A stretch of DNA of 57,409 nt from Candidatus Wildermuthbacteria bacterium RIFCSPHIGHO2_01_FULL_48_25 (GTDB lineage: Bacteria; Patescibacteriota; Minisyncoccia; Minisyncoccales; UBA10102), in the NCBI GenBank assembly GCA_001823155.1, contig MHTR01000006.1, forward strand, positions 1 through 57,409, read 5' to 3'. The notes under the pieces are model-generated. The model was not told the origin of the DNA and ran no database searches. It saw nothing but the letters and a program-made list of their open reading frames with translations. The stretch's first letter is position 1. Each line of letters opens with the position of its first letter. Position numbers and translations under genes: made by a program. Below, piece by piece: positions 4,546 to 6,035 of this stretch.

Positions 4546-5751
4546 TTAAATCGTGACGAGTTGGTACAAAGGCAGAAGAATGGCTGCCATTAACCCTCCG
4601 ACCAAAAGCCCCAGGATAACGATGAGCAAGGGTTCTAGTATAGAAAGGAAGCTCTCCACGGTATTTGCGAGCTCCCGCTGGTAGAACTGCACCACGTTCA
4701 GCAACGTGGTGTCTAACGAGCCCGACTGCTCTCCCACTAGAACCATTTGCGTGAACACCGGAGGGAATTCCAAAGGATATCTTCCTAAAACGTCGCTGAT
4801 GCGCTCTCCTTTTCTCACCGCTTCTTTTGCCTCGCCCAGTATGCTCTTGTAGTAGTCGTTCCCCACGATTTCCTGGGTTATCTCAATCGCTTCAACAATG
4901 GGAAGGCCTCCGGCGATCAGCGTGGAAAGATTCTCGGCAAAGCGCGAAAGATACATCATGCGCAAAAAGGAGTTCAGAGCGGGAACCTTGAGCACGAACA
5001 GATCAACGTTGTGCTTTCCCTGCGGCGTCTTGATATATCTGAGCAAAAAGAACACTCCTAGGGCCAGGAGCAAAAACACGAGCCACCACCAGGTGTTGAG
5101 GAATCCCGCCAAACCAATGACAACTTTAGTGATGAACGGAAGCTCTCCTCCCAAGTCACCCAGAATGCGGGTTAAGTTGGGCACCACGAACGCCATCATG
5201 AGAGTGAGCACGACGACTCCAGTGCCGACAATAAAAGCGGGGTATGTGAGAGCGCTCTTTATCTTGTTCTGGAGATTGTATTCCCGCTCCAAATGGTCTG
5301 CCAAAGACTCCAGAACCTCGGAAAGCGAGCCCGCGCTTTCTCCGCTTTTCACCATGGAAACATAGTATGAAGAGAAAACATCCGGATTCCTGCTCAATGC
5401 CTGGGATAGAGAGGTTCCTCCTTCCACATCCTCTGAAATCCTCATGATTTTCTCGGCAAACATTCTATTCCTGGTCTGCAGAGCCAGGGTTCTGAGGGCT
5501 TCCAGCAAGGTAACCTGGGATTTGAACAGGATCGCCAAGTGCCGCGAAAACATCATGACGTCTTTTGCTTTTACCCGTTCAAAGAACGAAATAGATTTTG
5601 AGTAAAAGGGCTTGTCACCCGATTCTTCCAAAATGGTGACGGTCAAGCCGTGCTGGCTGAGCAACTGCAAAGCAGCGTCTTTTGAAGAAGCTTCAATAAC
5701 TCCTACTTGGGTTTCTCCTGTTTGGTTCCTCGCTTGATAGTTGAACTTCAC
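4546..5751 (-). CDS. pilC: type IV pilus platform protein PilC (GspF family)
   Basis: 401 aa with duplicated GspF-type domains and 3 TM segments. GTG start, with GTGA overlap with the stop of the GIY-YIG ORF. Confidence 0.9.
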   Translation of the reverse strand: MKFNYQARNQTGETQVGVIEASSKDAALQLLSQHGLTVTILEESGDKPFYSKSISFFERVKAKDVMMFSRHLAILFKSQVTLLEALRTLALQTRNRMFAEKIMRISEDVEGGTSLSQALSRNPDVFSSYYVSMVKSGESAGSLSEVLESLADHLEREYNLQNKIKSALTYPAFIVGTGVVVLTLMMAFVVPNLTRILGDLGGELPFITKVVIGLAGFLNTWWWLVFLLLALGVFFLLRYIKTPQGKHNVDLFVLKVPALNSFLRMMYLSRFAENLSTLIAGGLPIVEAIEITQEIVGNDYYKSILGEAKEAVRKGERISDVLGRYPLEFPPVFTQMVLVGEQSGSLDTTLLNVVQFYQRELANTVESFLSILEPLLIVILGLLVGGLMAAILLPLYQLVTI

Positions 5752-6035
5752 CCCGTTAGAGATAGGAAACGCTTCAATCTGTTTTTCAGATAGCGTTTAC
5801 CCATACCAGATTTAAGATATATCTCTCTTGACCTTGCATCTTGTTCGTTGACACACGCTTCATAATAGATGAATTTCCATGGACCTCTCTTATTCGTTGA
5901 ACGACTTTTCCCAGAATTGTGCTGATTGAAGCGTTTCCGTAAATCATTGGTAGAACCTGTATACCACCTCCTGTTCTTGTTTTGAAGCACATACACATAG
6001 AACATGGTTGATGAGCTATCTCTAACGGGGTTCAT
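5748..6035 (-). CDS. stand-alone GIY-YIG nuclease domain protein (COG2827/YhbQ-like)
   Basis: 95 aa. FYVYVLQ..., YTGSTNDLRKRFNQHN, ...YYE...AR.RE..LK match the GIY-YIG core. The first codons (MNPVRD) and last codons (SLTG) are encoded by the terminal inverted repeats. ATGA overlap with the pilT stop. Confidence 0.85.
   Translation of the reverse strand: MNPVRDSSSTMFYVYVLQNKNRRWYTGSTNDLRKRFNQHNSGKSRSTNKRGPWKFIYYEACVNEQDARSREIYLKSGMGKRYLKNRLKRFLSLTG
5749..6035 (-). mobile_element. inverted-repeat-bounded insertion carrying the GIY-YIG ORF (copy A, putative autonomous copy)
   Basis: Sense strand: ATGAA-C-CCCGTTAGAGATAG...CTATCTCTAACGGG-GTGAA. Perfect 14-nt terminal inverted repeats lie at 5752-5765 and 6016-6029, flanked by the ATGAA/GTGAA direct repeat. 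Five shorter copies share the termini. Confidence 0.7.

Follow-up and report, generated by a model that had tools for sequence, protein, structure and literature searches.

A candidate autonomous transposon of about 280 bp with a GIY-YIG nuclease as its only protein, found at start codons in Patescibacteria and other bacteria

Background

The classes of transposons follow the chemistry of the transposase, which is of the DDE, HUH, serine, tyrosine or Cas1 type, or a reverse transcriptase. Here we describe a short element with terminal inverted repeats (TIRs) whose sole open reading frame (ORF) encodes a small GIY-YIG nuclease, and for which we propose that this nuclease is the agent of its movement. 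The element lies between a pilT-like gene and pilC in a 57,409-nt stretch of DNA from Candidatus Wildermuthbacteria bacterium RIFCSPHIGHO2_01_FULL_48_25 (contig MHTR01000006.1, positions 1 to 57,409; referred to below as the window), and homologous elements are found in numerous other genomes.

Among the described proteins, those of the UPF0213 family (COG2827; BH0048, EF2693, YazA, YhbQ) resemble the window nuclease in that they consist of a stand-alone GIY-YIG domain of about 95 aa. The structure of UPF0213/YhbQ proteins was solved in 2005, and the family has no assigned function. The clade of the window protein differs from the relatives examined (B. subtilis yazA and a Subdoligranulum gene) by TIR-coded protein termini (MNPVRD... 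and ...SLTG) and by the association of its genes with target-site duplications (TSDs) and transposable elements of the miniature inverted-repeat type (MITEs). The nuclease domain of Slx1 is a match at the level of the fold (template modelling score 0.55-0.60, 22-29% identity to the window protein) and cuts branched and stem-loop DNA, an activity that fits the terminal stem with an abutting hairpin in the window element; however, Slx1 is a eukaryotic repair enzyme that is not part of a mobile unit, and the window protein has neither a RING domain nor an Slx4 partner.

Several types of mobile elements share some but not all features of the window element. The cut-and-paste transposon piggyBac has a large transposase of the DDE/RNase H fold and a palindromic TTAA target; the likeness is one of logic only (tetranucleotide target, 4-bp duplication, short TIRs and potential seamless excision), whereas the window element encodes a GIY-YIG nuclease and has an asymmetric target, A/TGAA (the slash marks the point of insertion). 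The IS200/IS605 and REP/RAYT elements depend on HUH tyrosine transposases and have no TIRs and no target duplication. Their tiny size, subterminal hairpins, short specific targets and abundant non-coding palindromic derivatives are reminiscent of the window element, which differs from IS200/IS605 by its TIRs, the 4-bp duplication and the absence of an HUH protein. A GIY-YIG nuclease serves the selfish element in the case of the homing enzymes I-TevI and Seg, the Penelope-like elements and the Tsy transposons. The homing enzymes are proteins of about 200 aa or more with extra DNA-binding domains, rely on homologous repair and are not associated with TIRs or TSDs, whereas the window protein has 95 aa and its family has TIRs and 4-bp duplications at unrelated host genes; Penelope-like elements need a reverse transcriptase, whereas the nuclease is the only protein of the window element; and the Tsy transposons require tyrosine recombinases, their GIY-YIG protein being a dispensable accessory nuclease. 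Finally, the Rickettsia palindromic elements and gene-proximal MITEs are, like the short copies described below, short palindromes tolerated in or next to coding sequence, and some copies of the window family are translated in frame. To our knowledge, the Rickettsia palindromic elements have no autonomous partner, and the window family differs from them by a putative autonomous partner and a defined start-codon target.

A search of the accessible literature returned no description of such an element family, which apparently is undescribed; the term 'GIY-YIG' is absent from a 2024 review of MITEs (PMC10969869), and one study reports a GIY-YIG protein among the genes exported from Patescibacteria.

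Results

Structure of the element

The nuclease ORF (Table 1) is preceded by a T2SSE/pilT-like gene (6032..7078), is followed by a T2SSF/pilC gene (4546..5751) and overlaps both: its ATG (6035-6033) shares bases with the TGA of the pilT-like gene, and its TGA (5750-5748) shares bases with the GTG start of pilC. Read along the minus strand, the locus is ...CTT ATT AGA TGA A, CCCCGTTAGAGATAG...ORF...CTATCTCTAACGGGG, then TGAAGTTCAAC... The bounding inverted repeat is perfect and in a repeat search extends over 16 nt (5750-5765 / 6016-6031), and a second inverted repeat, 15 nt long with a 100% match, is found inside the ORF (helix 2 in Table 1) and is conserved and covarying across the family. 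The initial annotation, made from the window sequence alone, had listed the ORF, its inverted-repeat termini, the coding of MNPVRD and SLTG by these repeats and the overlaps with the pilT stop and the pilC start, all of which are present. The flanking direct repeat, which it gave as an imperfect one of 5 nt (ATGAA/GTGAA), is actually a perfect 4-bp TGAA repeat plus the terminal base of the element; the mismatch is only apparent because the A or G in question is the element's own last base.

Lining up the six copies in the window with 76 homologous elements yields the family consensus N1 N2 CCGTTAGAG...CTCTAACGG N2' N1', flanked by a 4-bp repeat. The TIRs of the family are 13-16 nt long, start with T/C-CCCGTTAGAGA... 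and coincide in part with the opening and closing codons of the ORF. The outermost pair of bases is T...A in 50 elements and C...G in 20, including the window element, and is complementary in 72 of the 76. Together with the TG of the duplication, the last base of the element forms the rebuilt start codon of the host gene, which is ATG for the T...A elements and GTG for the C...G elements (pilC in the window, and the loci L013 and L030).

Distribution of the family and evidence of mobility

A database search identifies 4878 relatives of the nuclease at E <= 1e-3, the best 120 of which are 69-100% identical to it and come from many lineages of Patescibacteria; a genome scan detects 365 loci, with metagenome-assembled genomes (MAGs) of Omnitrophota, Desulfobacterota, Planctomycetota and Nitrospirota also represented. 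The architecture of the element was counted in 80 homologous loci fetched from other genomes. Both near-invariant termini are present in 76 of these, which answers the question raised by the initial annotation whether homologs elsewhere are flanked by the same repeats. Among the 76 full-length elements, 47 have a 4-bp flanking repeat (TGAA in 41 of the 47), and in 50 a host ORF of 60 aa or more, unrelated between loci, begins exactly at the junction; inspection by eye recognizes fmt-, pyrG-, dnaJ-, murG-, secY- and ychF-like N-termini. The variant repeats TGGA, TGAG, TTTA and TTAA agree on the two sides of a single copy, which indicates that the repeat is derived from the target. The nearest relatives of the window element (84-85% DNA identity) precede a gene for capsule synthesis and one for a small membrane protein, and two elements from a groundwater time series that are 94.6% identical to each other (L008 and L017) have unrelated flanks.

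The pilB-response regulator-pilT-pilC operon is syntenic in 80 metagenomic relatives. The pilT-pilC junction is empty in L081, L106, L135 and L142, with a TGA/ATG overlap (...AGATGAAGTT... / ...ATGAAGTTTAA... / ...AGATGAAGTTTAA...), and in most of the other syntenic relatives it consists of a short spacer followed by ATGAA. In L119, an independent MITE of about 139 nt is inserted in the same pilC ATGAA; in L044 and L046, a nuclease element with 67-69% identity occupies the same pilC start; and the starts of the response-regulator genes in orthologs are empty ATGAA sites. The boundaries between occupied and empty sites correspond to the exact element plus the TSD, and the empty site is a single ATGAA, as had been predicted for such a comparison. 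In the metagenome scan with pilT, nothing exceeds 73% identity (one partial contig reaches 82%), so that the empty sites come from moderately distant relatives. A candidate case of recent transposition, P0069 on 103 contigs, proved uninformative, being one locus recovered from many samples.

The family thus combines TIRs, a TSD of typical length, presence/absence polymorphism and non-autonomous derivatives, all of which are characteristic of TIR transposons; the remaining characteristic, a transposase of a known class (DDE, HUH, serine, tyrosine or Cas1), is missing, the sole ORF being that of the GIY-YIG protein. Judged by these sequence comparisons, the window element is a member of a mobile family. 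A mobile GIY-YIG-associated family is what the initial annotation had suggested, and this suggestion is supported; that the nuclease catalyses the movement is what we infer.

Two identical elements lie about 97 kb apart on CAVZUR010000004.1 (Moranbacteria; L048 and L050), with flanks that are 99% identical over 100 nt, which points to a segmental duplication. Identical sequences filed as a Planctomycetes MAG and a Syntrophales MAG (L020 and L022) result from an artefact of binning or else from a very recent transfer.

The nuclease as the only cargo

Inspection of about 1.8 Mb of fetched sequence detects no gene other than the nuclease inside any TIR-bounded unit, in line with the original description of the ORF as the sole cargo, and no conventional transposase in such units, the presence of which would have counted against the proposed family. 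Composite or larger elements carrying a conventional transposase were considered as well; the 12 pairs of TIRs spaced 0.4-6 kb apart are neighbouring independent copies.

The 95-aa ORF corresponds to the GIY-YIG domain PF01541 (63.1 bits against a cut-off of 22.6, E 3e-17), and the catalytic residues Y13, Y15, Y25, G27, R33, H39 and E59 do not vary among 48 sequences. The conservation pattern indicates that the nuclease is under purifying selection with the catalytic residues intact. The predicted structure is beta-beta-alpha-beta-alpha-alpha, with a mean predicted local distance difference test (pLDDT) value of 86, and the TIR-coded tails are modelled with low confidence (pLDDT 53 and 63 versus about 93 for the core). 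The UPF0213 structures 1zg2 and 1ywl are detected by sequence (E 5.9e-9 and 5e-3, respectively) and rank first and tenth in a Foldseek search; the UPF0213 proteins BH0048 and EF2693 are the nearest solved relatives, followed by the Slx1 nuclease domain, with UvrC scoring far behind all of these. The match to TIGR01453, group I intron endonuclease, is below the cut-off (26.3 bits against 56.05) and covers only the N-terminal 82 of the 215 profile positions.

An exhaustive search (E <= 1e-3) yields 8108 clusters formed at 50% identity. As judged by a crude count of motifs, TIR-encoded ends are found in about one quarter of the 150 best representatives, including a clade of about 50% identity with proteins ending in ...YLTG. 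Two distant members, B. subtilis yazA and a Subdoligranulum gene found by tblastn, have no bounding inverted repeats. Plasmid and phage relatives are limited to UPF0213-like genes with 30-42% identity, and the two with checked flanks have no TIRs.

Three distant small GIY-YIG proteins (P0177, P0183 and P0184) have N-terminal extensions that resemble translated tRNA genes (...WVRIPPSP..., ...GSNPSPSA...), which suggests that other UPF0213 clades directly adjoin tRNA genes. The 1747-aa protein P0124 gives 23 separate matches to the 95-aa query (23% identity); it is highly repetitive and has a short motif in common with the nuclease.

Short non-coding copies

In addition to the nuclease element, the window contains five short non-coding copies of 79-119 bp (Table 1), the same number as initially annotated, which share the CCCGTTAGA...TCTAACGGG termini with it. 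The 9-mer CCCGTTAGA, with at most one mismatch allowed, occurs 19 times in the window against 8.9 expected, a count reached in none of 100 shuffles. Copy 3 belongs to the GAAGCCGCGATCGC subfamily, which is present in several other genomes. Copy 4 is derived from the full element by a deletion in the interior that left both TIRs in place and helix 2 as a compact hairpin (GGAAACG...CGTTTCC); tips aside, it matches the right-end sequence of the nuclease copy, GGAAACG...CGTTTCCTATCTCTAACGGG. Copy 6, unlike the other copies in the window, is not at a start codon but in the gene-end sequence CAT GAA TAA, 10 nt upstream of the IF-2 start (42987), where it turned HE-stop into ...HESR-stop via a TAG within the TIR; this insertion indicates that the target is defined by sequence.

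Table 1. Features of the nuclease element and of the short copies in the window
Feature	Position	Strand	Remarks
Full-length element	5751..6030	-	280 bp; perfect 15-nt TIRs CCCCGTTAGAGATAG / CTATCTCTAACGGGG, outermost pair C...G
GIY-YIG nuclease ORF, 95 aa	5748..6035	-	alternative internal start Met11 at 6005
Upstream TGAA target copy	6031..6034	-	with preceding A6035 = ATGAA; TGA doubles as pilT-like stop
Downstream TGAA target copy	5747..5750	-	with last base of element G5751 = pilC GTG; TGA = nuclease stop
Helix 2, 3' arm	5765..5779	-	subterminal, abuts right TIR; codes ...RLKRF...
Helix 2, 5' arm	5924..5938	-	internal; codes ...LRKRFNQ...; contains ...ACGGAAACGCTTCAATC...
Copy 2, 79 bp	7470..7548	-	T...A tips, TSD TGAA; start codon of response-regulator gene 7099..7470
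Copy 3, 119 bp	9288..9406	-	TSD TGGA; start codon of pilB 7555..9288
Copy 4, 84 bp	11799..11882	-	TSD TGAA; start codon of pilM 10729..11799
Copy 5, 80 bp	17693..17772	+	5-bp repeat TGGAA; start codon of class I aminoacyl-tRNA synthetase gene 17772..19877
Copy 6, 80 bp	42997..43076	-	TSD TGAA; last codons of DUF4446 gene 43068..43433

A later non-redundant census comprises 46 short non-coding copies from the fetched loci and the window. A 4-bp repeat flanks 31 of the 46, and repeats of the form TGNN are found in 23; in all 22 copies for which the TGNN repeat is exactly 4 bp long, the preceding base is A or G.

In several loci (L003, L004, L049, L060 and L076), a MITE is located directly at the right junction of a nuclease element, with a TGAA or TTTA repeat common to both; such tandem stacks at one start codon can arise because each insertion regenerates ATGAA on both sides. 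Short copies are also nested in frame within the nuclease gene (P0126 and L028:2757-3162). The one in P0126 interrupts the conserved IYYE motif (...ELIY/PVRG...SNG/VYYEAC...), the consensus DNA of which, TATTATGAAGC, holds an ATGAA target.

The exact left-junction pattern of the full element is not found in IMG/VR, where only mini-copies of 38-68 nt are detected, on 14 viral contigs; viral carriage of the full element was therefore rejected. The mini-copies on the contigs L166, L173, L174, L175 and L177, about 40-60 nt long and mostly flanked by TTCA...TTCA, contain CCTCC, which is GGAGG in the sense of the host gene, about 11 nt before the rebuilt ATG; this subfamily may bring its own ribosome-binding site.

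Other inserts of 80-500 nt that are rich in hairpins or repeats (e.g., repeated AATTCGTA or ACGAAT) are present in pil operons of related Patescibacteria, in the pilT-pilC or pilB-response regulator spacers of L085, L087, L091, L102, L104, L109, L113 and L125. These inserts are unrelated to the element and may represent further MITE-like families.

Target site and location at gene starts

Reconstruction of 63 insertion sites gives the target A/TGAA, with frequencies of.95 for A, 1.0 for T, 1.0 for G,.95 for A and.92 for A; nothing else is conserved, and a Shine-Dalgarno component, which was considered, is not visible in these sites. Of the roughly 526 RTGRA sites in the window, about 454 are within genes and about 41 fall between genes or at their edges, while gene starts account for about 21. 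The copies themselves are at gene starts in 5 of 6 cases in the window, in 40 of the 42 full-length elements flanked by TGNN, and in 20 of the 23 TGNN-flanked MITEs, with a host ORF in place. This excess of start codons is either mechanistic or a product of selection. A fixed orientation of the element relative to the target was rejected, given that copies flanked by TTTA or TTCA have the same T-R-A-A target on the other strand; the constant feature across copies is the orientation relative to the host gene.

Embedding of the ORF in the translation signals of the host

Start and stop codons were counted in 41 full-length elements flanked by ATGAA. The nuclease is read in frame from the target ATG in 22 of these, the window copy being of this type, and about 10 of the 22 have no internal Met at all, which implies dependence on the borrowed start. 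In the remaining 19, the target ATG opens a short ORF (often MNPVRD-stop), and the nuclease starts from an ATG of its own that follows within a few nucleotides. In all 41 elements, translation of the nuclease ends on the TGA of the duplicated target, which overlaps the rebuilt host start. In databases, the window gene is called from Met11, which results in the 85-aa protein P0001. Strict translational coupling was considered as a general rule; it is true of the full-length element, where the overlap is always ATGA or GTGA, and fails for the MITEs.

Some in-frame elements are located within type IV prepilin- or pseudopilin-like genes (L068:9938-10636; L055:6738-7307 and 7383-8120; L060:253-620; proteins P0132, P0138, P0139 and P0245), exactly at the leader-cleavage motif (G/FTLIE), as in MKTLFELKERG/FTPLE...nuclease...SLTG/FTLIEIMLVVVIIG. 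Here the TIR codes for FTPLE, which mimics the N-terminus of pilins, and cleavage by prepilin peptidase could therefore set free the nuclease as well as an intact pilin. In L055, a 128-nt MITE at the prepilin position is translated through all 44 codons. In the window, pilC is closely followed by three type IV pilin-like genes (2947-4531). The window also contains 18 tRNA genes, mostly in four clusters (11965-12641, 32765-34434, 41051-41212 and 46243-47575).

Cis-acting signals in the DNA of the element

In the interior of the element, the frequency of the majority base is 0.55-0.57 at third codon positions and 0.77-0.87 at positions 1 and 2. In the TIRs, no codon position varies much (0.87-0.99), with a value of 0.87 at third positions. 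Covariation in the helices was computed on an alignment of 73 elements. Helices 1 and 2 together are 93% paired (95% for helix 1 alone) and contain 149 double-change cells, compared to 37 +/- 5 in shuffled alignments (0/500); in a control in which the 3' partner is slid by 1 to 3 columns, pairing drops below 50%. Many of the compensations are synonymous, with Lys codons AAA/AAG paired to Arg codons CGT/CGC. The mismatches are symmetric (22 G.T versus 23 A.C), a pattern that favours a signal at the DNA level over a structure of the RNA alone; a structure specific to RNA was rejected on this ground and given that Rfam yields no match.

On a tree of the interior sequences, the tip pair changes from T...A to C...G or back at least 8 times, with the two ends changing together, which indicates that it is the complementarity of the tips, not the identity of the bases, that is maintained. 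At the place where copy 4 keeps helix 2, unrelated MITE families have hairpins of other sequences (GGTCGCC...GGCGACC, GTCCCGC...GCGGGAC and GCCCCGAC...GTCGGGGC). When the copies are oriented by TGAA, the MITE hairpin adjoins the right TIR in 8 cases and the left TIR in one, and the exception is host-proximal too if oriented by the host gene.

Proposed mechanism and alternative explanations

Taken together, these observations are best compatible with an autonomous DNA transposon of about 280 bp, the sole protein of which is a nuclease of the UPF0213/Slx1 type, accompanied by non-autonomous miniatures; we estimate the probability of this reading at roughly 0.7. Under this reading, the GIY-YIG nuclease itself probably is the transposase. 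We also lean, if with slightly less assurance, towards a new class of prokaryotic transposons, with a nuclease transposase of about 95 aa, no start or stop codon belonging to the element itself, start-codon capture, an ATGA/GTGA hand-back to the host gene and a prepilin-site sub-lineage.

The nuclease would be expressed from the promoter and the ribosome-binding context of the host gene, and the host gene would be translated by termination-reinitiation at the ATGA/GTGA overlap. The protein is predicted to recognize folded or cruciform ends, in which the stem with its abutting hairpin would be a branched substrate like that of Slx1, and would introduce 4-nt staggered cuts at the boundaries between the element and TGAA as well as at target ATGAA sites. 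Host ligase and repair would complete excision and insertion, and the tetranucleotide target, the 4-bp duplication and the potentially seamless excision would follow the logic of piggyBac. Selection would spare mainly the non-disruptive insertions, namely those at start codons, gene ends and prepilin leader sites; if selection is at work, its grounds would be the lethality of insertions within genes and the need of the nuclease for an ATG.

Several considerations weigh against this scheme. We know of no GIY-YIG enzyme that acts as a transposase, and the GIY-YIG fold is hydrolytic, so that joining would need a host ligase. The protein is a catalytic domain alone, with no obvious DNA-binding module, and the 5-bp target recurs hundreds of times per 57 kb, so that unrestrained cutting would be toxic. 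Among the full-length elements, 18 of the 76 have no matching flanks and a few have repeats of 3, 5 or 6 bp, and in the window the nuclease copy has C...G tips and all five MITEs have T...A tips. The reading frames upstream of MITEs end 0-106 nt before the host ATG, so that coupling does not explain the translation of their host genes. Near-identical copies within one genome were not seen (the segmental duplication mentioned above aside), and current activity is unproven. Finally, the genomes were inspected in part, so that an enzyme acting in trans could be encoded elsewhere.

An enzyme of this kind is central to one alternative, namely that the TIR elements are ordinary MITE-like DNA moved in trans by a conventional transposase, with the GIY-YIG gene as a passenger involved in addiction, defence or repair. 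It is compatible with the partial inspection of the genomes, with the movement of non-coding copies that lack the ORF and with the lack of precedent for a GIY-YIG transposase, the Tsy nuclease being merely a non-essential accessory to tyrosine recombinases. Nevertheless, we consider it unlikely, given that the nuclease is the only gene found between these termini, at 76 loci from many phyla, that its first and last codons are the TIRs, and that it is under purifying selection with its catalytic residues intact; such universality is unexpected of a passenger if the supposed true transposase never turns up between these ends. Somewhat less probable still is homing-like spread, in which ATGAA would be cut and the element copied from a template via 4-5-bp flanking microhomology, resulting in an apparent duplication. 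The long flanking homology that homing requires is absent between unrelated host genes, and the repeats TGGA, TGAG and TTTA, which match across one copy, must come from the target and not from a TGAA donor. It is true that GIY-YIG proteins are the classic homing endonucleases, that there is a weak match to TIGR01453 (26 bits), that the length of the repeat varies (3, 5 and 6 bp occur) and that a hydrolytic nuclease requires host repair anyway; however, this 95-aa protein scores below the TIGR01453 cut-off and lacks the DNA-binding domains of I-TevI and Seg, and conserved, covarying TIRs with a subterminal hairpin are hallmarks of end recognition.

It seems very improbable that the inverted repeats are regulatory or RNA-level signals of a resident host gene and the other copies regulatory palindromes. 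Both helices are present in the predicted fold of the sense RNA (minimum free energy z-score -3.0), and the copies are directly upstream of start codons, a frequent place of regulatory structures. Such signals would not account for orthologous presence and absence with exact duplication boundaries, for host genes that are unrelated from copy to copy, or for the same element across many phyla, and the symmetric mismatches and the lack of an Rfam match likewise point away from the RNA strand.

Implications

If the proposed role of the nuclease is true, a GIY-YIG-only element adds a class of transposons, and the prediction is testable with a 95-aa protein and DNA ends of about 30 nt. At about 280 bp, the element would be the smallest autonomous DNA transposon known to us, and a very small nuclease that requires defined ends and a defined target might be of use in genome engineering. 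Insertions of this family explain thousands of 'GIY-YIG nuclease family protein' entries in MAGs of Patescibacteria and Omnitrophota, along with many of the odd GTG starts, extended N-termini and fusions to pilins in these genomes, and the presence of the family in many phyla is a marker of horizontal exchange involving Patescibacteria. The UPF0213/YhbQ family gains a concrete functional hypothesis, which, if true, would be its first function. For a compact genome, the element represents a new lifestyle, in which it occupies a start codon and borrows and rebuilds the translation signals of the host; this explains how copies can be present before essential genes, such as those for an aminoacyl-tRNA synthetase, pilB and pilM, in a window that is 91% coding.

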